This document shows positions 29,268 to 41,680 of a stretch of 64,000 nt of DNA, piece by piece. How positions within the stretch are numbered: the stretch's first letter is position 1; each line of letters starts with the position of its first letter. The DNA comes from Thermoproteota archaeon (GTDB lineage Archaea > Thermoproteota > Thermoprotei > Gearchaeales > Gearchaeaceae). The stretch spans positions 135,316 through 199,315 of the forward strand of contig JAVVGF010000004.1 in assembly GCA_032249235.1 (NCBI GenBank), given 5' to 3'. A program made the translations under genes and the position numbers. The notes under the pieces were generated by a model. It searched no databases, was not told where the DNA came from, and saw nothing but the letters and a program-made list of their open reading frames with translations.

Positions 29268-29381
29268 CATCAATGTATTTTAAATATTAAGCTGGTTTTA
29301 TCATGGAAAAAAATGCTCTAATAATCGTTTTGTTATTTTAAATTGATGAAGCTTATTCAAATCAATAAATTGAATAAAGAA
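29268..29381 (+). repeat. Direct repeat copy 2
   Basis: Near-identical to 24089-24200; overlaps the start of the radical SAM gene. Confidence 0.92.
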
Positions 29382-30536
29382 TGTGCATTATGTGGCTATC
29401 AGTCTATTTATTTATCAAAAGCTATAGGCGTTTGCAAATATTGTTTAAAGAATAGAACAGATGAAGCTTTAAAAATTGCTTTTGAAAACCATGCTAAAAT
29501 CAGAAAACTTTTCAATTTACCTCCTTTTCCTCCGAAGAGTCAAAAAGGAATTAAATGCAATTTTTGTGCTGCAGAATGCATAATGGATTATGGCGAATTT
29601 GGCTATTGCGGCTTAAGATTTAATAATAATGGAAAAATGGGAAGTTTGGTGAGTAACGATGAAGCCCTTTTATATTATTATTTAGATCCTCATATCACGA
29701 ATTGTTGTAATGCTTATTTTTGTCCTGCAGGAACAGGTATTGGTTATCCTGAATATGCTTATTGCAAAGGTCCAGAGTATGGATATTATAATTTAGCTCT
29801 GTTTTTCTATGGATGTTCATTTAACTGCCTTTTTTGCCAAAACTGGAATCATAAAATACTAAGCGAAGGCAAATTGGTTCATGTAAATGAGATCGTTAAT
29901 TTGACTTTGAAAAATGAAAAAATTTCTTGTTGGTGCTGGTTTGGAGGAAGTGCAGAACCGCAATTACTTTATGCAATAAATGCATCCAAGAAAATACTTG
30001 AGTTAAAGCCTTCAAAAAGAATCGTTAGAATTTGCTTTGAATGGAACGGTGATGGAAATAAAGGCTTGGTTAGAATAGCAGGAGATTTAGCATATAGAAG
30101 CGGTGGAAACATAAAATTTGATTTGAAAGCTTTCAATAATGCTATACATTTAGCTTTAACAGGAATGGATAATAAGAGAGTATTTGAAAACTTTGAGATG
30201 ATATACAATGAATATTTTGAGAAAAGGAAAGGAATTCCTGTATTAGGAGCTACAACGTTGTTAGTTCCGCATTATGTTGATGCAGAAGAAGTTGAGAATA
30301 TAGCTAAATTCATAGCAAGCTTAAATGAAGAAATACCTTATAATCTTTTAATCTTTCATCCAGATTTCATGATGAACGATATTCCAATAACTCCTAGGAA
30401 ACAAATTGAAGAATGCTATAATGTAGCTAAAAAACATCTTAAGTACGTTAATATAAGCAATATGCATTTAATAGGTTATCACCGTTCTTCTCTTTCTTGG
30501 GGTATGAAAGAAACTCCTTTAATGATTTCTTTATGA
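29346..30536 (+). CDS. Radical SAM protein, PFL-activase-like with Cys-rich N-terminal region
   Basis: GCSFNCLFCQNW radical SAM motif; additional CxxC pairs and NCC; KFDLKAF; FHPDF. Confidence 0.82.
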   Translation: MKLIQINKLNKECALCGYQSIYLSKAIGVCKYCLKNRTDEALKIAFENHAKIRKLFNLPPFPPKSQKGIKCNFCAAECIMDYGEFGYCGLRFNNNGKMGSLVSNDEALLYYYLDPHITNCCNAYFCPAGTGIGYPEYAYCKGPEYGYYNLALFFYGCSFNCLFCQNWNHKILSEGKLVHVNEIVNLTLKNEKISCWCWFGGSAEPQLLYAINASKKILELKPSKRIVRICFEWNGDGNKGLVRIAGDLAYRSGGNIKFDLKAFNNAIHLALTGMDNKRVFENFEMIYNEYFEKRKGIPVLGATTLLVPHYVDAEEVENIAKFIASLNEEIPYNLLIFHPDFMMNDIPITPRKQIEECYNVAKKHLKYVNISNMHLIGYHRSSLSWGMKETPLMISL

Positions 30537-30602: not shown

Positions 30603-30851
30603 ATGGAAGAAATAAAGCCACATAAGACCTTGGACGCAAAAGGATTATTATGTCCAATGCCTGTCATGAAAACAAATCAAGTTATTAAAGAAATCCAAAT
30701 AGGGCAAATTTTAGAAGTCATAGCAACCGATCCTGCATCGAAATCAGATATTTCAGCTTGGTGTAAGCAAACTGGTAATGAATTGTTAAAGATGATAGAG
30801 GAAAAAGGGCATCCAACAGTATATCGATTCTATATTAAAAGATTAAGATAG
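30603..30851 (+). CDS. tusA: Sulfur carrier TusA
   Basis: LDAKGLLCPMP, ATDP. Confidence 0.92.
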   Translation: MEEIKPHKTLDAKGLLCPMPVMKTNQVIKEIQIGQILEVIATDPASKSDISAWCKQTGNELLKMIEEKGHPTVYRFYIKRLR

Positions 30852-30852
30852 T

Positions 30853-31176
30853 TTACAAACTTAAAATTTCTAATTCTCTTTTTTTCCTTTCTTTTATAAC
30901 TTGATCGATTAAATCGTAAGCTTTCAATATTCTTTCATCAGCAATCTTATAGTAGACTTTTCTTCCTTCTTTTCTTATAGAGACTATCCCTAATTTCCTG
31001 AAATTTGCTAGATGTTGAGAAATTGTTGACTGTTTTAATCCGAGTTCTTCTTGAAGTTCAGTAACTGTTTTTTCACCCTCTCTAAAAATATCAATTAACG
31101 CTAATCTTATAGGATGAGCAAACATTTTACAAAATTCTGCATGCATCTCATATAGTTTTTCTAGCTTACTTTTCAT
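30853..31176 (-). CDS. ArsR/SmtB family transcriptional regulator
   Basis: AHPIRL, SQHLA, RKEGRKVYY; located inside the sHdr locus. Confidence 0.9.
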   Translation of the reverse strand: MKSKLEKLYEMHAEFCKMFAHPIRLALIDIFREGEKTVTELQEELGLKQSTISQHLANFRKLGIVSIRKEGRKVYYKIADERILKAYDLIDQVIKERKKRELEILSL

Positions 31177-31247: not shown

Positions 31248-31670
31248 ATGGAAAAAAAGAATAGATTGCTAATTGTTGCAAGTAAAGGTACTGCTGATGC
31301 ATTGTATCCCGCTTTAATTCTTGCGACTACTGCTGCTTCACAAAACATGCGTGTAGATATTTACTTTACTTTTGGAGGAATGAAATTATTAATAAAGGGT
31401 ATGGCTGAAACTATCAAGCCATCAGTTGATTTAGGATTATCTCAAGAAGACCTAACCAAGTTGTTACAAAAAGGAGGCATGCCTACTTTAAAAGACATGT
31501 TAAAAATGGCTAAGGAAATGGGCGTTAAAATTCATGCATGTTCACCTACTATGAACTTATTCGGTTTAACTGAAGAAGATCTTACAAAAGATGTTTGTGA
31601 TGATATAATAGGAGCAGCAACTTTCTTAGAAATGGCTTCTGACCCAAATTCAATAGTAATATTTATTTAA
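31248..31670 (+). CDS. dsrE: DsrE/DsrF-like sulfurtransferase (DsrE2 type)
   Basis: ALILATTAA, YFTFGG, KIHACSPTM, GAATFLE. Confidence 0.85.
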   Translation: MEKKNRLLIVASKGTADALYPALILATTAASQNMRVDIYFTFGGMKLLIKGMAETIKPSVDLGLSQEDLTKLLQKGGMPTLKDMLKMAKEMGVKIHACSPTMNLFGLTEEDLTKDVCDDIIGAATFLEMASDPNSIVIFI

Positions 31671-32325
31671 GTTTAAAATAATTTTTTATATTTAAATTTT
31701 TTGCTTCTTTTAAAAATAAGTTAACGATTTCTTCAATACTAATTTTTTTCCAATAGCTTATATTTTGTACAGGAGGACAATTTGGTGGATGTATACATAA
31801 TAAATTAAGACGATTTAAATTAGTATTAACTAATAGAGTTCCATGAATTAATAGCGCCTTATTAGAAGCTCTTGCAGCCATTCCTGAAATCTTGTAACCT
31901 TCAATTTCAATTCTATTTGGTTCAGAAAAATATGCGTTTAAATTCAACTTATTAAGTATATTGACAATTATGTTAGATGCTGTTTCAAAGATTTCTTTAC
32001 TTTCAAAATAATGAAGAGAGGTTCGAATAAATAAGCTCCAATTTAAATTTCCTAGATCATGATAAACTACTCCTCCACCTGTTTTCCTTTGGTAAACAGG
32101 TATGTTTAATTTCTTAGCAAGATCAGCCCTATACCAGCCATACTTCTCATGTTTGCGAATTCCTTTTACAAGACATTCCTCATTTATCCATAATCTAATT
32201 ATACTATCATATTTTCCTTGCTCGACTTTTGTAAAAAGTTCATTTTCTTTTTTTAAGTTTAATTTTGGATTTTTATTCTCTTCTAAAATAAGTATATCTT
32301 TTCTATTATTTCTTGCAATTAACAC
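31663..32325 (-). CDS. lplA: Lipoate-protein ligase, catalytic domain
   Basis: RKTGGGVVYHDLGNLNWS, KISG.A, HGTLL. Confidence 0.87.
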   Translation of the reverse strand: MLIARNNRKDILILEENKNPKLNLKKENELFTKVEQGKYDSIIRLWINEECLVKGIRKHEKYGWYRADLAKKLNIPVYQRKTGGGVVYHDLGNLNWSLFIRTSLHYFESKEIFETASNIIVNILNKLNLNAYFSEPNRIEIEGYKISGMAARASNKALLIHGTLLVNTNLNRLNLLCIHPPNCPPVQNISYWKKISIEEIVNLFLKEAKNLNIKNYFKLK

Positions 32326-32740
32326 CCCATTTATCTATAATTGGTTTATATTTTTCATAAGCATCAGATCCTTTAATTAAAAACTTTATTTCTTCTTCTA
32401 ATTTTTCAGGTTTTATTTTTAAAACCCAATTTTCATAAGGATTTAAATTTATAAGAGTTGGGTCTTCTGATACATTTTGATTTATCTCAACAACTATACC
32501 CGTTAATGGAGATCTCATAGGACCCATATACTTAGCACTTTCGACAATGGCTGCGATATCCCCTCTTTTTAATTTTGTACCGATATCCTTTATTTTTATA
32601 TTTAAAAGCTCTCCTGCATATGCCTGCGCTGGGTCAGTTGCACCAATTATTGCTATATCACCATCTATCTTTACCCATACATGGTAATCTAAATCATAAT
32701 AAAGATCTTCAGGTATCTGACAACCTTTATATTCCTTCAT
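32306..32740 (-). CDS. lbpA: Lipoate-binding protein LbpA (GcvH-like)
   Basis: VESAK lipoylation site plus the N-terminal (GCQIP) and C-terminal (NCKK) Cys typical of LbpA; sHdr context. Confidence 0.85.
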   Translation of the reverse strand: MKEYKGCQIPEDLYYDLDYHVWVKIDGDIAIIGATDPAQAYAGELLNIKIKDIGTKLKRGDIAAIVESAKYMGPMRSPLTGIVVEINQNVSEDPTLINLNPYENWVLKIKPEKLEEEIKFLIKGSDAYEKYKPIIDKWGVNCKK

Positions 32741-32741
32741 A

Positions 32742-33116
32742 TCAGAAATAGAATATTACAGTATCAGGCTCTGAAGCCATTTCGAGAAGCGTATAAGCAC
32801 CTGCAAATGTAACATTTTCAGGCAAATCTTTTTCTTCCATTTTCCAAATATATTTTGCAGACGTGCTGCAACACAACATTTTAACACCATTATTCATCGC
32901 AAGTTCAAATACTTTTTTTAAAGGTTCACCGTCTTCTCTTGTTTTTAAATTTTCAAGATTTTCTTTAAGTAGCAGAGACGGGCCTTCTGCTAAAAAGAAC
33001 ATATAAGTTTCATAACCAAGTGAAGCCGCTGCAGCAGCATAATAAAATGGTGTGAATGCTTTCTTAGGCTCATTCACCCCAGTACTTACCACAAATAAAT
33101 ATCTTTTTTTATTCAT
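32742..33116 (-). CDS. dsrE: DsrE family sulfurtransferase (DsrE3-like)
   Basis: PFYYAAAAA, FFLAEG, GVKMLCC, AGAYTL. Confidence 0.82.
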   Translation of the reverse strand: MNKKRYLFVVSTGVNEPKKAFTPFYYAAAAASLGYETYMFFLAEGPSLLLKENLENLKTREDGEPLKKVFELAMNNGVKMLCCSTSAKYIWKMEEKDLPENVTFAGAYTLLEMASEPDTVIFYF

Positions 33117-33176: not shown

Positions 33177-33938
33177 ATGGATAGTAAGTTCTACTTATCA
33201 AGACTAAATGAGGATGGATGGTATTATGGCGGGTTGCCGGGTTTACAATGGGAAGTTGAGCAGGCGCGAAAACAAAATAGAGAATTATTGAAAAAAATAG
33301 TAGATGAGTTATATAATGATGAAAGATTTCACGAATTTTATTATGCATGTATAAATTGTGGTAATTGTACTTCTGTATGTCCTGCATTTAGATTTGTTGA
33401 CTTTGAACCTAGAATAGTTGTGCAAAAAATCATGCATGCTAAAGATGAACCTGAATTACTATATCAAATGATGGATCAATATATTTGGGCTTGTTATCAA
33501 TGTTATTCATGCTGGGATGTATGTCCTGCACATAATAATCCAGGAGGTTTGGTTCTTATTTTAAAAGAAATAGCTGTTAAGAACGGTTTAGATTCATCAA
33601 AAGCAGCTCTTGAACCATATAGTAAAATAGTTTATAAAATAATGACCACAGGTACTCAAATTACACCAGATATGCATACGACAATAGCTCTATTTAGAGA
33701 TTGGGGTCCTCATAAAGCAGAATTGGCTAAAAATATAAGAATTGATAGAAAAGCCGTCCCTGTTCCTTCAATGAATGGTGTGATGGATAAAAGTTGGAAG
33801 GTCGATGAACAGACTATGAAAGAATTGATGCTCATTCATAAGGAAGCTGGTGTTTGGGATTCCATTAAAAAAACTTTAAAAGATGTGGTAGATATGATTG
33901 AAGAAACTGCTAGAGAGAAAGGAATTAAAGATGGATAA
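33177..33938 (+). CDS. hdrC1: sHdr subunit C1 (2x[4Fe-4S])
   Basis: CINCGNCTSVCP and CYQCYSCWDVCP, NNPGGLV, DWGP. Confidence 0.9.
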   Translation: MDSKFYLSRLNEDGWYYGGLPGLQWEVEQARKQNRELLKKIVDELYNDERFHEFYYACINCGNCTSVCPAFRFVDFEPRIVVQKIMHAKDEPELLYQMMDQYIWACYQCYSCWDVCPAHNNPGGLVLILKEIAVKNGLDSSKAALEPYSKIVYKIMTTGTQITPDMHTTIALFRDWGPHKAELAKNIRIDRKAVPVPSMNGVMDKSWKVDEQTMKELMLIHKEAGVWDSIKKTLKDVVDMIEETAREKGIKDG

Positions 33939-35223
33939 AACTTTATCAATAGATTTTAAAGAAGAAGAGATTACCTTAACCAAGGAAGATCAAAAATTAT
34001 TTCAAAAATTGGTCGAAGAAAGAAAAGCTAAACTTGCTAAAGGTACGATTGAAGATTATTTAAGGATGTTAGATAAAATGAAAGAACTCGAGAAGAAAGG
34101 CGAAATCATCATACATCATGTTCATGAAGAATATCAACCTAGATTGGTTAAAACATTGAGTGGAAGAGTTAAAAAAATACCTACTGTTGAGCTTTGGCAA
34201 CATAAATCTTGTGGACAATGTGGTCATATTCCAGGATACATATCTGCCTTATATTGGATAATGAATGAATTAAACATACCTTATGTAGATGATACAAACC
34301 AAACATCATGCACTGCATGGAATTATTATGGAAGTGGCACCTCAAATACTATTGCTATAACTGCAGTATTTTTAAGAAATATGCATGTTGCTTATGAAAA
34401 GAATGCATATCCATTAATACATTGTGGTACAAGCTTTGGCGACTATAAAGAATGTAGATATTTTGTTGTTATGAGTGACGAGATAAGAAATAAAGTAAGG
34501 GCTATACTTAAGAAAATTGATAGAGATATCGTAATACCTGAAGAACTTGTTCATTATAGTGAATGGTTGCATGTTATGAGATATGAAATAGCCGAGAAGA
34601 AAAAGTTTGATGTATCAAACATAAAAGTCGCAGTGCATGCAGCATGTCATACTTACAAGCTTATGTCTGAAGATTATACTTATGATGATAACATATTAAA
34701 TGGTATAAGACCAGCTCCTACTTCAAGTATAGTTTTAGCATTAGGTGCTAAATTAGTAGATTATAGCACTTGGTATGACTGTTGTGGCTTTGGTTTTAGA
34801 CACATATTAACTGAAAGAGAAATAAGTAGATCCTTTGCCTATTTTAGAAAGATTAAACCAGTTGTTGAGGAGACACAAGCGGATGTCTTAATAACACATG
34901 ATACAGGTTGTGTAACTACTTTAGATAAAAGTCAAGTTGTTCCTTTAGCTCATGGTTATAAAGAAACAATTCCTGTAATTGCAGATTCTCAGTTCGCTGC
35001 ATTGGCCATGGGGGCTCATCCATTTAAAATATGTCAACTCCATTGGCATATAGCAGACTGGAGAAATTTGTTAAATAAAATGGGTATTGATTGGCAATCA
35101 GCATGGGAGGAATATAAAAAATACATTGAAGAACTTAAGAAAGGAGCAAAACCATTTTTATTAATTCCACCTCCAAGGAGGCTTCAACCTAAAATAATTC
35201 GCGATAAACCTGTAGTAATTTAA
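33931..35223 (+). CDS. hdrB1: sHdr subunit B1 (CCG domains)
   Basis: HKSCGQCGHIPGY, QTSCTAWNY, HCGTS, WYDCCGFGFRH, HDTGC, LHWH; likely start ATG 33931. Confidence 0.92.
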   Translation: MDKTLSIDFKEEEITLTKEDQKLFQKLVEERKAKLAKGTIEDYLRMLDKMKELEKKGEIIIHHVHEEYQPRLVKTLSGRVKKIPTVELWQHKSCGQCGHIPGYISALYWIMNELNIPYVDDTNQTSCTAWNYYGSGTSNTIAITAVFLRNMHVAYEKNAYPLIHCGTSFGDYKECRYFVVMSDEIRNKVRAILKKIDRDIVIPEELVHYSEWLHVMRYEIAEKKKFDVSNIKVAVHAACHTYKLMSEDYTYDDNILNGIRPAPTSSIVLALGAKLVDYSTWYDCCGFGFRHILTEREISRSFAYFRKIKPVVEETQADVLITHDTGCVTTLDKSQVVPLAHGYKETIPVIADSQFAALAMGAHPFKICQLHWHIADWRNLLNKMGIDWQSAWEEYKKYIEELKKGAKPFLLIPPPRRLQPKIIRDKPVVI

Positions 35224-36279
35224 ATGGAGGGAAACAAATCCATTTTAGTCATAGGTGCAGGACCAGCAGGCCTTCAGGCTTCTAAAGACATTGCTGAATT
35301 TGGATTTAGAGTTGTATTGGTAGAAAAAAATAGTGAATTAGGAGGAGCACCAATTAGATGGAGATATCATACATTAGCTCCTGATTTTGTACCTACAGAG
35401 AAGGTATTGGGTCCTCTTATAGATTTTGTAAAGAATAACAGCTTAATTACTGTGTATACAAATTCAATAGTTGAAGGCTATGAACGTAAAGATGATTTTT
35501 TCAAAATTAGGATTCTAAATTTAAGAAATAAAAGTATCTCTTATGAGAATGTTTCTTCAGTAATTGTAGCTACAGGTTTTGAACATTATAACGCTTCAGT
35601 TGACCCAAGATATGGTTATGGAATCAATCCAAATGTTATAGGAATTAACGAGTTGGAAATCATGATTAGTAATGGTAAGGTTGTAAGGCATGATGGAAAA
35701 ATTCCTAAACGAATTGGCTTCATTTTATGTGTAGGTTCTAGAGACAAGGCGACAAATCCATGGTGTTGTACTGTTTGTTGTGGTGTATCTATAAAACAAG
35801 CTATTGAAATTAAGAAAATAATACCTGACTCGCAAATCTACATAATATACATGGATATAAGAACGATAGGTCTTTGGGAAAAGTTATATTGGCAAAGCAT
35901 GGAAAATTATCACATTAATTATATAAGAGGTAGAGTCGGCGAGATATATTGGACGGGAGAAAAACTATTGGTTAAAGGAGAAGATACGCTCGTTAGAGGA
36001 CCTTTTGAGGCTTTATTCGATATGATAGTTTTAGCTGTAGGTATGGAACCTGGTGAAGGAACAAAACAGGTAGCAAAAGTATTTGGTCTTAGAGTTAACG
36101 AATACGGTTTTCTTTCACCACGTATACCAAATATTCATTATGATTCAGGCAAAGATGGCATATTTTTAGCAGGTGCATGTGTCGCTCCTATGTCTGTAGA
36201 GGAAGCAATAGGTGAAGGTTCAGCTGCCGCATTACAAGCAATTAAATATTCTATGAAAAGAGACAGAAAAGTTCCATGA
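35224..36279 (+). CDS. hdrA: sHdr subunit A (short FAD/[4Fe-4S] HdrA)
   Basis: VIGAGPAG, CVGSRD, WCCTVCC, YMDIR, GEDTL; 351 aa, the single-domain sHdrA size. Confidence 0.92.
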   Translation: MEGNKSILVIGAGPAGLQASKDIAEFGFRVVLVEKNSELGGAPIRWRYHTLAPDFVPTEKVLGPLIDFVKNNSLITVYTNSIVEGYERKDDFFKIRILNLRNKSISYENVSSVIVATGFEHYNASVDPRYGYGINPNVIGINELEIMISNGKVVRHDGKIPKRIGFILCVGSRDKATNPWCCTVCCGVSIKQAIEIKKIIPDSQIYIIYMDIRTIGLWEKLYWQSMENYHINYIRGRVGEIYWTGEKLLVKGEDTLVRGPFEALFDMIVLAVGMEPGEGTKQVAKVFGLRVNEYGFLSPRIPNIHYDSGKDGIFLAGACVAPMSVEEAIGEGSAAALQAIKYSMKRDRKVP

Positions 36280-36737
36280 CAGAAGATAAAAAAGAGAAAG
36301 AAGAAGAAAGAAAAGGTAAATATATTATTGAGCGTGAGTACATAGAAGATGAAAGAATCATAGAACCTGAAAAATTAGATATCGGCGGAATCGATGCTTC
36401 AGGTAGATGGGGTGTAATAGTTTTACCCAGAGTAATAAGCGATTTTGATCATTCGTTGATAGAAGAAGTTAAAAAATTACCAAGAGGTAAGCACATAGAA
36501 AGATGCTGGCAATGTGGACTTTGTACTGCAGTATGTCCAGTAGCTCATAAGGAGCCTAATTTCAATCCTAGATATTTCATCTATATTGTTAAAATGGGTT
36601 ATAAATCAGAAATTAAAAAATTAAAAAAGTATATTTATCTTTGCCAAGGTTGTGGTTTATGCACTGAAGTATGTCCTAAGCATGTAGATCCATCAGGTGT
36701 CATGATGGCATTAAATATATTATTTGATAAATTATGA
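36276..36737 (+). CDS. hdrC2: C-terminally shortened sHdr subunit C2
   Basis: sHdrC2-type GIDASGRW..PRVISD, RCWQCGLCTAVCP, FNPRY, CQGCGLCTEVCP; the protein ends just after the second cluster (153 aa). Confidence 0.8.
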   Translation: MTEDKKEKEEERKGKYIIEREYIEDERIIEPEKLDIGGIDASGRWGVIVLPRVISDFDHSLIEEVKKLPRGKHIERCWQCGLCTAVCPVAHKEPNFNPRYFIYIVKMGYKSEIKKLKKYIYLCQGCGLCTEVCPKHVDPSGVMMALNILFDKL

Positions 36738-37426
36738 ATAATTTTACATTAAGTATATTTTATGTTTTGTTTAATGTTATTTTATTTATAGTTTCTTCAA
36801 TCATTCTTATATTAAGAATAAAAAGATGGGGAGTATCATATCCTTTTATAAATTTATTCAAGGAATTTTTTAAAAGAGGAAAATTAAAAATTTATTCTAA
36901 ACTAAAAATACTTATAAATACATTTATTAAAGATCTTCTAAGCTTAAAGCGTGCTGGATATTTATGCGAAGAAAGATTTCATTTTTATGGGAGGGTCTTG
37001 CTTGTCTATGGATTTGGCGGTGTAGTAATAATGAATCTTATAAATTTTATTCTAAATCCTTTAGGTATACCATTAGGTTTTTCTCATCCTTTAAGTGTCA
37101 TCACTTATCTAGCTTACATATTATTAGCTTTAGGTTCTCTTATGCTATTTTTAAGACGCTTTATAAGAGTTAATCTGAGAAAAACTACTGATTTATCTAT
37201 ATGGCTTTTGCATTTATCGTTATTTTATTTTTCAGTAATAGGAATTTTATACTTTTCATTGCTTAATTCAGGTTTTATATTTTTAAGTTCTATCATTTTT
37301 TACTTTTATCTTGGCGGCATAGGCTTGCTTTATTTATTTCTACCTCTAAGTGAAGTGGGATATTTTATATGGAAAGCCTCTGCATTATTAACACATTCGC
37401 TTTCAATAGAACGTGAAAGCGATTAA
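36734..37426 (+). CDS. QmoC/NarI-like membrane subunit
   Basis: 5-6 TM segments; LCEE..GRVLLVYGF and YLFLPLSEVGY resemble the QmoC membrane domain; 4-bp overlap with hdrC2. Confidence 0.65.
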   Translation: MNNFTLSIFYVLFNVILFIVSSIILILRIKRWGVSYPFINLFKEFFKRGKLKIYSKLKILINTFIKDLLSLKRAGYLCEERFHFYGRVLLVYGFGGVVIMNLINFILNPLGIPLGFSHPLSVITYLAYILLALGSLMLFLRRFIRVNLRKTTDLSIWLLHLSLFYFSVIGILYFSLLNSGFIFLSSIIFYFYLGGIGLLYLFLPLSEVGYFIWKASALLTHSLSIERESD

Positions 37427-37432
37427 TGATTT

Positions 37433-37804
37433 ATGAGTGCAAATAATGATAATTTAAGTCTTTCAAGTAAAATTGAAAAAATGTTTGCTAAAAGGGATCA
37501 TGTAGGTGTAGTGAAACATTTTGAAGGAATCGATATAGATTATTTTGTACATATTACACGTAATTTAATGAAGGAGATAGGAAAAAAATATGAAGATAGC
37601 ATTGAAGTTAAAAAACAAAGAATTGTTTATAATAATTTGTGTTACTTATCTGATAATTTATATTTATGGATTAAAGGCACTCAAACTGATTTAGGAGTAT
37701 TGCTTGAAATGAAAATATATCATCCTACAGAGCTCAGTGTTTTAAGTGATGAATTATTAAATAAGTTTACAGAAATCTTCGAGAAACTCATTATTAATTT
37801 ATAG
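37433..37804 (+). CDS. Hypothetical protein, last gene of the sHdr operon
   Basis: 123-aa ORF starting 6 bp after the previous stop; no motif recognised. Confidence 0.6.
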   Translation: MSANNDNLSLSSKIEKMFAKRDHVGVVKHFEGIDIDYFVHITRNLMKEIGKKYEDSIEVKKQRIVYNNLCYLSDNLYLWIKGTQTDLGVLLEMKIYHPTELSVLSDELLNKFTEIFEKLIINL

Positions 37805-38801: not shown

Positions 38802-40367
38802 ATGAAAAAAATCTCAATAATATTTTTCATTTCATTAAACATTATGACGATGAATTTCTTAAATGCTGTTGTACCTTGGTATGATGAAGCATATGCATCC
38901 TCAAATGTAATATTGATAGGTATATATGGGAATAATGATAGAATTAATGTGACTTTACAAGCTATCACACAAGCTTTAAGTGAAAGAAATATTCCATATT
39001 CAATTAATTATATAAGTGAATTGATTTGGCAAAACACGATGAATTTTGACATTCTTATAACAGATGCCGATTTGATTGAGATTAATAGTGAAACTTATCC
39101 TGCAGTACGAAATGTAGAATCTCATGGCGTTTTATTTCTATTAGGAAATTCAAGCAAGTTTCTAATCGATCAACCATATCCTATTATTAGCGAAAAAGTT
39201 AGTGAGATTCATCTATCGAATTCCTCAGGAGAATTCAGAATCCTAAACTCAATTGCTGAGCAGTTAATATATTATCAGGAATTTAAGCCATATTATTCGT
39301 TGACTATCAAATCTGAGAAGTTATACACGCTCGAAGGTAGGATATATTCTGAATCTTCCAGCTTATTTTCTCAAAAGATAAAAGAAATATTTAACGATGA
39401 GCTATTTCAATCCATTTTAATCAACCAACTTCCTGCTTCTAATAGTGATGTTTTATGCGGCGGAGATAATTGGATCATAAAAGCATGGTATGTATACATC
39501 GTTATAATTTATGATGGGGTTTTTTATAAGAAAAATGTTGCAGAAACGAGAGGGGATTGGATAGTATGTCAGCTAACCAAATCTTCACTAAATTATAACT
39601 GGTTTTTGATTCATTACAAGCTTTGGCATGCAATATATAAAGATGGATATTCCTGTGATGCTTCTCATTGCGGGTGGTTTGTAAATAGTAGAGACATTTA
39701 TTCGAATTATAATTTATTCTCTCAAGCAATATATGATTTCGATCCTCAAACTACTATTGGTGGAACCGAAGTTTCTGTCACTTTGGGCATAGAAGCGGGA
39801 AAAGATGGAATATCTGGTGGTGCTTCTGCGACTTGGTCATACTCAAAGCCTGATGTAGAGATTTACGCTTATGTATACCCTGCAAGCAACACTGCTGAAT
39901 GGTATGAAAAACTAAAAGGACCAGATTATACATGGTGGCCTATCGTTATAGAACCAGCTCCAGTTGCTAGAACCACATATCGCTCTGAACCAGGAATAAT
40001 TGCTTACTCTCCAAAAAGCAATCCATTTTTTATTATAAAAGATGCTACTGATAATGTAACTTTAAGATATGATGTTATCAAACCTTATTCCATATTCTTG
40101 ATAATCTACAAATATACTTTTACTGTGACAATGAAATGGCCTTATATTTTAACATATACAGCTTCTTCTTACAATGGAAATCCTGTAGTCAAAATAAAAA
40201 CGTATAGTATAACAAACTCTTCTTCCAACCATTCATTTGTAGATGAATATAAACTAGTTGTTACACCGCTTTATACACCAGCGTTATTACTCGCTATCAC
40301 TACTGGTATCATAATTGGATTATTTCTAATATTTAAAAAAATACGTATTAAAAACAAAAATTATTAA
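38802..40367 (+). CDS. Secreted, C-terminally anchored hypothetical protein with a leukocidin-like stem segment
   Basis: Signal-like N-terminus; C-terminal TM plus basic tail; YDFDPQTTIGGTEVSVTLGIEAGKDGISGGASATWSYSKPD. Confidence 0.7.
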   Translation: MKKISIIFFISLNIMTMNFLNAVVPWYDEAYASSNVILIGIYGNNDRINVTLQAITQALSERNIPYSINYISELIWQNTMNFDILITDADLIEINSETYPAVRNVESHGVLFLLGNSSKFLIDQPYPIISEKVSEIHLSNSSGEFRILNSIAEQLIYYQEFKPYYSLTIKSEKLYTLEGRIYSESSSLFSQKIKEIFNDELFQSILINQLPASNSDVLCGGDNWIIKAWYVYIVIIYDGVFYKKNVAETRGDWIVCQLTKSSLNYNWFLIHYKLWHAIYKDGYSCDASHCGWFVNSRDIYSNYNLFSQAIYDFDPQTTIGGTEVSVTLGIEAGKDGISGGASATWSYSKPDVEIYAYVYPASNTAEWYEKLKGPDYTWWPIVIEPAPVARTTYRSEPGIIAYSPKSNPFFIIKDATDNVTLRYDVIKPYSIFLIIYKYTFTVTMKWPYILTYTASSYNGNPVVKIKTYSITNSSSNHSFVDEYKLVVTPLYTPALLLAITTGIIIGLFLIFKKIRIKNKNY

Positions 40368-40611: not shown

Positions 40612-40650
40612 TTAGTTTCAGAGTGAAACTAAGTTTCGGTATGGAACTAT
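40612..40650 (+). promoter_or_regulatory. Tandem palindromic operator-like site
   Basis: Perfect TTAGTTTCA-gag-TGAAACTAA followed by imperfect AGTTTC-GGTAT-GGAACT, abutting the ATG at 40649. Confidence 0.6.
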
Positions 40651-41680
40651 GACTTTATTTGATCTTAAACCAAAGAAAAATAGAAATGAACTTTTTGATA
40701 GAGAGAAAGAACTTGAAGAGCTGAAAAAGGCAGTTGATAAAAGATATCCTATTATTGCTATTTTAGGGATTAGAAGGATTGGTAAGACAAGCGTATTAAA
40801 AACGTTCCTAAATGAAATCGGCGGAGTTTACTTAGATTTAAGAGGGATTTATAAGACTATTGAATTGCAAGAAAGGATTACCGATAGCATAAATTCTTCG
40901 ATTGTAATACTTAGAAGAATACTTGAAGGGATAAGAGGAATAAGCTTTGCAGGTATTTCTGTAGAAATTAAATGGAAAGGTAGCGATTCTATAAGCCTTG
41001 TAGGTTTGCTCAATGAAATCAATAGAAGAACCAATAGTTTCATCTTAGCTTTAGATGAAGTCCAAGCAACAAAGCCTCCTGTTTCAGCTCAGCTCAAAAA
41101 CTTGCTTGCTTATGGTTACGATAATCTTGAAAATATAACCTTTATAGTAGCTGGTTCCGAAATAGGTTTACTAAGGGATTTTCTAGGTATTGAAAGACCT
41201 GATTCTCCTCTATATGGTAGATATATCTACGAAATACATGTTGAAAGACTTTCAAGAGAAGAATCTAGAGAATTCTTAATGCGTGGATTTAAGGAAGAAG
41301 GCTTGAATCCGCCTATAAATATAATTGAAGAAGCATTGGATTATTTTGACGGAATAATTGGATGGTTAGCATTTTTTGGAAGAAAATATGCAGATGGTAT
41401 AAGAGACTTAAAGGATTTGAAAGAAATAGCTATTAATTTAGCTTTAGATGAGCTTAAAAAACTAAGCATTAGAGAAAAGCTTGTTCTCAAAGCTATTGCT
41501 TCAGGTTCAAGTTCATGGAGTGCAGTAAGAAAATTCATTGGAGAAAAAGAAGGAATAACTCTACCAAAAGCAACACTTTCAAGATTGATAGAAAAGATAG
41601 AGAAGCTAAGCATAGTAAAGGATTATCGTTTTTTAGATCCGATATACAAAGAAGCTTCCTCAAGGCTATTGATTAAATAA
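40649..41680 (+). CDS. Archaeal ATPase (ATPase_2 family) with C-terminal wHTH
   Basis: LFDLKPK..LFDRE, GIRRIGKTS, LDEVQ, GSEIG, PLYGR, DGIIGW, DPIY. Confidence 0.9.
   Translation: MTLFDLKPKKNRNELFDREKELEELKKAVDKRYPIIAILGIRRIGKTSVLKTFLNEIGGVYLDLRGIYKTIELQERITDSINSSIVILRRILEGIRGISFAGISVEIKWKGSDSISLVGLLNEINRRTNSFILALDEVQATKPPVSAQLKNLLAYGYDNLENITFIVAGSEIGLLRDFLGIERPDSPLYGRYIYEIHVERLSREESREFLMRGFKEEGLNPPINIIEEALDYFDGIIGWLAFFGRKYADGIRDLKDLKEIAINLALDELKKLSIREKLVLKAIASGSSSWSAVRKFIGEKEGITLPKATLSRLIEKIEKLSIVKDYRFLDPIYKEASSRLLIK

Follow-up and report, generated by a model that had tools for sequence, protein, structure and literature searches.

The electron destination of the heterodisulfide reductase-like (sHdr) pathway and the roles that sHdrB2, sHdrH and the lipoate-binding protein play in it are open questions in dissimilatory sulfur oxidation. 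How such a pathway might operate with neither sHdrB2 nor sHdrH is the question raised by a six-gene operon at positions 33177-37804 (+) of a 64,000-nucleotide stretch of DNA from a hot-spring Thermoproteota archaeon (GCA_032249235.1, contig JAVVGF010000004.1, positions 135,316-199,315 of the forward strand; hereafter the window, to whose numbering all positions refer unless a locus identifier precedes them). The operon encodes sHdrC1, sHdrB1, sHdrA, a short sHdrC2 of 153 residues (C2s), a 230-residue membrane protein (Mem) and a 123-residue protein (Hyp), and lies on contig C4 of a 1.43-Mb genome assembly (18 contigs, 91% complete). On balance we favor the view that it represents a third sHdr architecture, linked to quinone and, in this lineage, with a membrane subunit that carries no heme: the sHdrC1-B1-A core and its LbpA, lipoate ligase, DsrE and TusA helpers would have been kept, and the second arm of type I systems (sHdrH, full-length sHdrC2 and sHdrB2) would have been swapped for C2s, a Mem subunit of the NarI/HdrE/QmoC family and Hyp.

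The operon opens with sHdrC1, a predicted electron carrier with two [4Fe-4S] clusters (33177-33938, +, 253 residues; NCBIfam HdrC models, E 4.7e-26; Pfam Fer4_8), followed by the proposed catalytic subunit sHdrB1 (33898-35223, +; NCBIfam HdrB, E 5e-34; Pfam CCG, E 1.2e-9), which measures 441 residues when read from a TTG codon at 33898 but probably begins at an ATG at 33931, since its counterpart in locus L014 aligns with it from residue 12 only. The sHdrA flavoprotein is a short form (35224-36279, +, 351 residues), with matches to NCBIfam HdrA models (E 2.2e-64) that cover only the core of those 770-residue models. C2s (36276-36737, +) overlaps the end of sHdrA by 4 nucleotides, Mem (36734-37426, +) overlaps C2s by the same length, and Hyp (37433-37804, +) follows Mem after a gap of 6 nucleotides, so the genes are coupled. 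The six open reading frames (ORFs) thus bear out the initial annotation of this DNA, which had described a tightly coupled operon of C1, B1, A, a shortened C2, a membrane protein and a hypothetical protein.

C2s carries both CxxCxxCxxxCP motifs, and its eight cluster cysteines are invariant among five orthologues from two families. It is 45% identical to bacterial sHdrC2 over 131 residues (17-147, E 1e-43), a match that includes the stretch N-terminal to the first cluster, and 35% identical over 89 residues (E 4e-13) to the N-domain of a full-length QmoC-like protein; judged by its sequence, C2s descends from sHdrC2 rather than from the QmoC N-domain. The sHdrC2-like N-terminal signature, the two [4Fe-4S] motifs and the length noted in the initial annotation are all recovered, and its proposal that C2s and the membrane protein together form a split QmoC holds as domain logic but fails as ancestry: the NCBIfam qmoC model NF038018 matches C2s over its positions 5-87 of 360 (E 5.4e-14, 52.4 bits) and Mem over positions 156-358 (E 1e-6, 28.5 bits), with C2s descending from sHdrC2. 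C2s ends one helix past its second motif, where Sulfolobaceae and bacterial sHdrC2 proteins run about 80-100 residues further. In the methanogen HdrABC structure the C-terminal tail of HdrC embraces HdrB, and the missing tail of C2s therefore fits the missing sHdrB2.

Neither sHdrB2 nor sHdrH, both reported missing from the window at the outset, is found there, elsewhere in the assembly or in any of four further genomes that share the arrangement. No CCG-domain protein besides sHdrB1 lies near the cluster, and sHdrB1 is the sole HdrB-like gene of the host genome, where a B1 query finds itself only. Sulfolobaceae and bacterial B2 and C2 queries retrieve from this genome only B1, C2s, C1, SdhB and a GlcF-like protein, and a hidden Markov model built from nine sHdrH sequences finds no match at E<=10 among its 3380 ORFs. 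When the five genomes that have the arrangement, 88-95% complete, are searched with the B2 query, only B1 comes up, weakly and in three of them, and the sHdrH profile matches none of the five; as a positive control, the same profile matches five of five Sulfolobaceae genomes with E-values of 1e-58 to 1e-71. Two candidates for a hidden second arm were set aside. The only other CCG-domain protein of the host (contig C8, L005:15-1818) is a 2x[4Fe-4S] protein that resembles GlcF and neighbors a GlcD-like gene for a FAD-linked oxidase, and a further HdrC-like match on contig C2 is SdhB. Genes for electron-transfer flavoprotein (ETF) occur in this genome only on contigs C1, C2 and C3.

The arrangement recurs well beyond the assembly in which it was noticed. 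A scan of species-representative genomes with a C2s alignment, of which the best 80 of 245 relatives were kept, yields eight archaeal records, and in all eight C2s is followed directly by Mem and Hyp; the records are titled Thermoproteota archaeon, Candidatus Marsarchaeota G1, Crenarchaeota archaeon SCGC AAA471-B05, Nitrososphaeria archaeon, Candidatus Calditenuaceae and, three times, Candidatus Caldarchaeum. The other 72 of these 80 loci are bacterial, with B2 beside a C2 of about 250 residues in 64 and inside an over-long ORF call in one, and with contigs that end too soon in seven. Searching metagenomes with an alignment of Mem sequences that lack the conserved heme histidines (His-less, see below) gives 20 loci; in 17 the gene immediately upstream of Mem is C2s, 12 of these 17 hold the full set from C1 to Hyp together with the divergent DsrE-LbpA-LplA genes, the 17 contigs range from 41 to 55% in GC content, and the remaining three loci are contigs of 1.3-1.9 kb. 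Among 401 genomes sampled across the phylum a B1 query matches 20, namely 14 of 15 in family f29, which have the type I order C1-B1-A-H-C2-B2, three of 17 in family f21, which have the gene order of the window including Mem and Hyp, the host and one other member of its own family (f1), and one distant genome. The genomes counted here by family and the titled records probably overlap, and their counts are not additive. An assembly artefact or a one-off arrangement is ruled out by these synteny counts, and the gene-order search proposed in the initial annotation has accordingly found the arrangement in eight archaeal records and 17 of 20 metagenome loci.

Closer to the host, a Mem query matches six of 41 relatives, the host included, and five of the eight other genomes of its family, two of which (G003 and G005) have intact synteny. 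In a third (G007, L015 6527-8816) both B1 and A are split in two, C1 has no match, and the record holds X residues; a fourth (G006, L016 8730-9879) has a C2s fragment, a Mem interrupted by a TAA stop and a split Hyp; and a fifth (G002, L018 6689-7176) retains nothing but Hyp and the C-terminal 37 residues of Mem. A genome of the same genus as the host (G001, 95% complete) gives no match to the Mem or B1 query. Such remnants, the frameshifts in G007, the lack of a match in G001 and the fast divergence of Mem could all be expected if the cluster were a decaying relic in this lineage, the loss of heme ligands in Mem being part of a loss of function. We regard this as highly improbable: the six ORFs of the window are intact and translationally coupled, the His-less form of Mem is monophyletic, old and intact in 17 metagenome contigs spanning the GC range given above, and the frameshifts of G007 may be sequencing errors. 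An RNA-library run (X10) also has contigs, with 0-4 mismatched letters apiece, over parts of DsrE3, C1/B1, A and Mem and over the B1/A and Mem/Hyp junctions, a weak hint, since DNA can be present in such libraries, that the cluster is expressed; stretches without such contigs (35840-36640 and others) are uninformative either way.

The other archaeal loci are closely related to the window in their core, with identities of 71-79% for B1, 64-77% for C1, 66-77% for A and 59-82% for C2s. For the window compared with L044, L046 and L047-L049, the B1 range holds between the Thermoproteota and Marsarchaeota records and those of Nitrososphaeria and Caldarchaeum, as against 53-57% to the Sulfolobaceae of the same phylum. 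Because B1 is closer to the Nitrososphaeria and Caldarchaeum records than to Sulfolobaceae, its sequence hints that the whole cluster may have moved laterally among hot-spring archaea.

What, then, is the membrane protein? Besides the qmoC model, which matches it at E 1e-6, the fold of its AlphaFold2 (AF2) model may point to the NarI/QmoC family, as the initial annotation had supposed. The model (pLDDT 87.6, pTM 0.80) is a helical bundle with long helices at residues 6-32, 81-107, 119-144, 154-179 and 182-205 and shorter ones at 37-76 and 207-229 that we place in the cytoplasm. Its top match in the PDB is EtfD of M. smegmatis (E 0.02, probability 1.00), and NarI chains occupy ranks 2-9 (probability 0.99-1.00, TMq 0.35-0.47, E 0.06-0.29, root-mean-square deviation about 12 Å), with E. 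coli NarI reaching a TMq of up to 0.47 at probability 1.00. A sequence profile of the Mem clade finds nothing meaningful in the PDB, its best match being a Toll-like receptor helix at E 0.17. A profile of the His-keeping relatives matches E. coli NarI (1q16_C) at E 1.1e-7. Searched against 1.84 billion proteins, a profile of four Mem orthologues collects 26 representatives at E<=0.001, including separate membrane proteins as well as full-length QmoC-like fusions.

Alignment with these relatives reveals where Mem departs from its family. In 19 rows, three histidines are invariant in all ten QmoC-like sequences, and the nine sequences of the Mem clade have R, Y/Q/N/T and Y/F at these columns; the window protein has R87, Y192 and Y210, which confirms the three replacements that the initial annotation had made out. 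The second and third of the histidines correspond to NarI residues 187 and 205, and the pairs H56/H205 and H66/H187 on NarI helices 2 and 5 are what we take to be the ligands of its two hemes. Judged by these columns, both helix-5 ligand equivalents and the conserved helix-2 histidine are gone from the window protein. With operon-linked genome and metagenome sequences added, 29 rows divide into 19 with R87, H83 and Y/F210 and ten with H87 and H210; H83 is invariant in all 19 His-less rows, in which position 192 is Y, N, Q, T or H and position 210 is Y or F, and only two of them (L044 and L146) keep a histidine at 192. A maximum-likelihood tree of 25 rows, from which one weak match (L056) was omitted and in which five fused proteins were trimmed to their membrane part, places 11 His-less rows on one side of a branch with support of 100/100, and their weakly supported neighbors (71/82) include His-keeping operon-linked proteins. 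The His-less clade has 24 invariant columns, among them C78, H83, G86, R87, R141, R142, P204, S206, W213 and K214, at an overall identity of only 22-67%. An H83-x-x-G-R87 motif, likewise invariant, has arisen in this clade where helix 2 begins on the cytoplasmic side.

The two forms divide along lineages. All three histidines are kept in the Calditenuaceae and Caldarchaeum versions of the operon (the Caldarchaeales records), and they are replaced in the window and its family, in the Nitrososphaeria record and in every metagenome locus that the His-less query retrieved, the Marsarchaeota G1 record keeping only the middle one. Because the His-keeping sister form has the same operon, the membrane arm is older or wider than the proposed loss of heme. 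Three loci additionally hold a second NarI/QmoC-like membrane protein of 238-251 residues beside the ArsR gene at the cluster edge (L046:2079-2810, L133:580-1335 and L136:717-1433, all on the minus strand), with histidine at the positions of 87 and 210 and tyrosine at that of 192; no such gene lies by the ArsR gene of the window.

The same alignments bear on whether Mem might still be a cytochrome b, with heme bound at a non-canonical site such as H83 and another residue, to which H192 could contribute in proteins of the Marsarchaeota G1 type. The invariance of H83 in 19 of 19 His-less rows and the retained His192 of L044 and L146 would suit such a site, and three COX1 homologues above cut-off in the host genome imply an organism that makes heme enzymes and respires oxygen. 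We nevertheless find it improbable, as both helix-5 partners equivalent to NarI H187 and H205 are lost, positions 192 and 210 vary in a way that ligand positions do not, and the AF2 helices would set H83 at their cytoplasmic end and H192 nearer the opposite face, where the two could hardly pair.

The neighborhood of the operon is that of an sHdr pathway. Divergently upstream of C1 lie genes for a DsrE-family sulfur transferase (32742-33116, -, 124 residues; Pfam DsrE, E 2.9e-15; syntenic in related loci), an LbpA/GcvH-like lipoate-binding protein (32306-32740, -, 144 residues; Pfam GCV_H, E 3.3e-30; 59-65% identity in related loci) and LplA, a protein with the catalytic domain of lipoate-protein ligases (31663-32325, -, 220 residues; Pfam LplA-B_cat, E 2.5e-36; syntenic in related loci). 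Beyond them follow a DsrE3-like sulfur transferase (31248-31670, +, 140 residues; Pfam DrsE_2, E 4.9e-25; 64-74% identity in related loci), an ArsR/SmtB-type regulator (30853-31176, -, 107 residues; NCBIfam NF033788 at 81 bits, cut-off 55; BigR-like, E 1.3e-16; syntenic in related loci) and a TusA-type sulfur carrier (30603-30851, +, 82 residues; NCBIfam TusA NF001423, E 1.9e-18; beside the cluster in related loci). LbpA and the lipoate ligase are present in every related locus. In the available excerpts of Tanabe et al. 2024 (PMC11094781), these neighboring genes make up the helper set of the sHdr pathway.

From the family relations of these proteins we infer the following electron path. Sulfane sulfur delivered by TusA and DsrE carriers, possibly via LbpA, would be oxidized at B1, and the electrons would pass through the clusters of C1 to the FAD of A, on to the clusters of C2s, and from there through Mem into the quinone pool, which the heme-copper oxidases would reoxidize. 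Because its heme ligands are gone, Mem is proposed to be heme-free and to have its quinone reduced at the cytoplasmic face, straight from the last C2s cluster. C78, H83, G86, R87, R141, R142, P204, S206, W213 and K214 would take part; going by the model helices and the positive-inside rule, these invariant residues should lie on the cytoplasmic side. Quinone reduction would then be electroneutral, much as with FrdCD, the anchor without heme in the fumarate reductase of E. coli; in the His-keeping sister form, electrons would instead cross the membrane along a heme wire to reach a distal site. The accessible portion of a preprint on the EMO structure describes heme-mediated menaquinone reduction driven by the proton-motive force (pmf) in a related membrane domain, and loss of heme in Mem would remove pmf coupling of this kind. 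A computed complex of C2s and Mem lends weak support to their binding, with an ipSAE of 0.53 against a best value of 0.01 among three controls; at least 95% of contacts are shared between runs, and the partners have a pLDDT of at least 75. The mark for this score is reached by 58 of 80 solved complexes and by two of 110 mismatched pairs, values at or below 0.60 accounting for seven of those 80 complexes and both passing mismatches, in calibration counts that are rough because they were obtained with the author's own alignments.

Could Mem instead be a mere tether or scaffold with no redox role? Electrons would then leave by a soluble route, for example from the lipoamide of LbpA through a dihydrolipoyl dehydrogenase to NAD+, and C2s would be a dead-end or regulatory ferredoxin. 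The loss of the heme ligands and the fast evolution of Mem speak for this, as do the ubiquity of LbpA and the lipoate ligase among the loci and a dihydrolipoyl dehydrogenase above cut-off in the genome; that gene, however, lies outside the cluster, on another contig. The conservation of C2s, with cluster cysteines that are all invariant across families and an overall identity of 59-82%, is hard to square with a dead end, and the His-less clade retains its 24 invariant columns despite its low overall identity, so that we consider a redox-inactive Mem rather unlikely. A complex running in reverse, with quinol or another donor feeding electrons through Mem and C2s into HdrA and B1 for the reduction of a sulfur compound, as happens with Qmo in sulfate reducers, appears quite improbable to us. 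The closest membrane analogues, QmoABC and HdrDE, draw their electrons from a quinol or phenazine pool, and the direction is not fixed by the operon alone; the three heme-copper oxidase homologues of the genome tell against reversal, and the conserved neighbors are genes of the oxidative sHdr-LbpA pathway as laid out in the available excerpts of Tanabe et al. 2024 (PMC11094781).

Several observations weigh against our preferred account of a quinone-linked architecture with a heme-free Mem. Taken by itself, the host genome is 91% complete, and B2 or H may reside on its unassembled DNA. The bit scores of C2s and Mem, on two separate genes, compare with a qmoC cut-off of 300 bits; Mem falls below the gathering cut-off of Pfam PF02665 (Nitrate_red_gam/NarI) with 16.2 against 22.9 bits (E 0.0085), and its model has no fold match in the PDB at E<=0.001. 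The absence of heme is read from the ligand residues alone, the invariant H83 is one helical turn from a lost histidine and may belong to an unusual heme site, and the quinone site is put forward on the strength of conserved residues. Mem and Hyp, at 22-42% and 29-45% identity to the window, evolve far faster than the core, which could stem from relaxed constraint, and in close relatives the cluster is decaying or patchy, with remnants in G002 and G006 and no match in G001. Taking both sides together, a heme-free mechanism in which quinone is reduced on the cytoplasmic (N) side is the most likely reading, though an unproven one.

More tentatively, and as a scenario that we deem possible rather than probable, the operon might exemplify a 'type III' sHdr of hot-spring archaea in which the H/C2/B2 arm was exchanged for a ferredoxin-plus-membrane arm. 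In one clade, a di-heme NarI-type cytochrome would have become a heme-free quinone reductase with a new HxxGR site, turning a transmembrane, pmf-coupled electron exit into an electroneutral one. Since LbpA and its ligase persist in the absence of sHdrB2, the partner of the lipoate protein would lie on the B1 side, and B2 would not have it as a substrate.

Hyp is counted as part of the system because of its synteny: it lies right after Mem in eight of eight loci from archaeal genomes and, where the flank is long enough, in those from metagenomes. It is a conserved alpha/beta protein with invariant residues H23, W79, H97, E100, D106 and E107, and its AF2 model (pLDDT 91.4) shows a four-to-five-stranded sheet packed by helices. 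It matches no Pfam or NCBIfam family, and its model has no fold match in the PDB at E<=0.001, the best being CyanoP (E 3.3e-3), with START/PsbP-like folds at TM-scores of up to 0.53; Atlas structure matches score 0.87-0.88, under the 0.9 level. A match to CLN5 (E 0.0013) was under cut-off and was taken as chance, and a relationship to sHdrH was rejected at an hhalign probability of 0.13%.

The flanks of the cluster hold further genes. Just upstream of TusA, a 397-residue radical SAM protein (29343-30536, +) has weak AmmeMemoRadiSam and activase matches and one distant paralogue on contig C2; it was considered as a lipoyl synthase partner and discarded, as it lies beside the cluster in none of 100 related loci. 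Further upstream, the segment 24284-29248 gives weak matches, far under cut-offs, to racemase-like, NCS1-family permease, thiohydantoin-desulfurase-like and caprolactamase/hydantoinase-like proteins and may be a hydantoin-type utilization cluster. Downstream of Hyp lie genes for a 521-residue protein with hydrophobic N- and C-terminal ends (38802-40367, +) and for a 343-residue protein (40649-41680, +), neither with an NCBIfam match at E<=1e-4.

A natural variant that has neither B2 nor H argues that B1-C1-A is a self-sufficient oxidizing module; one that keeps LbpA without B2 argues that LbpA is independent of B2; and one with a membrane subunit argues that the quinone pool is a workable acceptor. 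The His-keeping and His-less pair offers a ready-made comparison for how a NarI-type cytochrome b could come to work without hemes. Annotation pipelines that demand C1B1AHC2B2, or B3 with etfAB, would miss these sulfur oxidizers. Full-text literature searches, with subscription papers and supplements outside their scope, returned types I and II as the only sHdr types, and no description of an sHdr system that has a subunit of the QmoC/NarI type, nor of a member of this membrane family that lacks heme. The architecture is likewise not mentioned in the available excerpts of Aigarchaeota/Caldarchaeales genome papers, nor described in those of PMC11094781, PMC6053391, PMC6067878, PMC10547907, PMC3654217 and a DsrMKJOP preprint.

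Set beside known systems, the proposed mechanism may find a parallel in heme-free anchors of the FrdCD and NrfD/PsrC type, in which quinone chemistry would likewise be served by the last Fe-S cluster without a heme wire; these belong to folds and families unrelated to Mem, a similarity to which was not looked for. The cytochromes b of NarI and HdrE/DsrM may share the fold class of Mem, with the His-keeping relatives matching NarI as noted above, and differ in that the equivalents of H187 and H205 are Y192 and Y210 and that of the helix-2 histidine is R87. QmoC (NF038018) resembles the C2s-Mem pair in joining an HdrC-like module with two [4Fe-4S] clusters to a NarI-like membrane module that works with an HdrA-like flavoprotein, and C2s and Mem together cover most of its model, at positions 5-87 and 156-358 of 360; the window, however, has two genes, an Fe-S half derived from sHdrC2, scores far under 300 bits and replacements of all three histidines. 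QmoC proper is further characterized by bound heme b and by menaquinol-linked electron transfer to AprAB. The window cluster has no apr or qmoB context, no search for apr genes having been made.

Among the sHdr systems themselves, the accessible parts of PMC11094781 define type I as the syntenic shdrC1B1AHC2B2 and type II as shdrC1B1AHB3 with etfAB and, among archaea, assign Thermoproteota to type I and Thermoplasmatota to type II. Table S1 of PMC11094781 lists 397 assemblies that hold core shdr genes. Type II (shdrC1B1AHB3-etfAB-emo), so far as the excerpted sources describe it, is like the window system in having a remodeled C2B2 arm and a proposed quinone exit via a NarI-type membrane domain, and EtfD is the top fold match of Mem. 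The window cluster nonetheless lacks B3, a C2-B2 fusion, as well as H and etfAB; its membrane module is a small subunit of its own, to which the ferredoxin-like C2s would supply electrons; and EMO, according to the preprint on its structure, carries hemes where Mem has no ligands. With type I, as found in Hyphomicrobium, Aquifex and Sulfolobaceae, the window shares orthologous and adjacent C1, B1 and A genes (B1 being 53-57% identical to its Sulfolobaceae counterpart), a C2s that is 45% identical to bacterial sHdrC2, and the same LbpA, lipoate ligase, DsrE, TusA and ArsR-type regulator. Unlike type I, it has no shdrH between A and C2s, where the two genes overlap by 4 nucleotides, no sHdrB2 and no C-terminal 80-100 residues of C2, and it adds Mem and Hyp. 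By its gene content the architecture thus fits neither type I nor type II, in agreement with the initial claim that it lies outside the described types, at least as these are defined in the published excerpts, and the operon is a real, recurrent and, it appears, undescribed variant of a known system.

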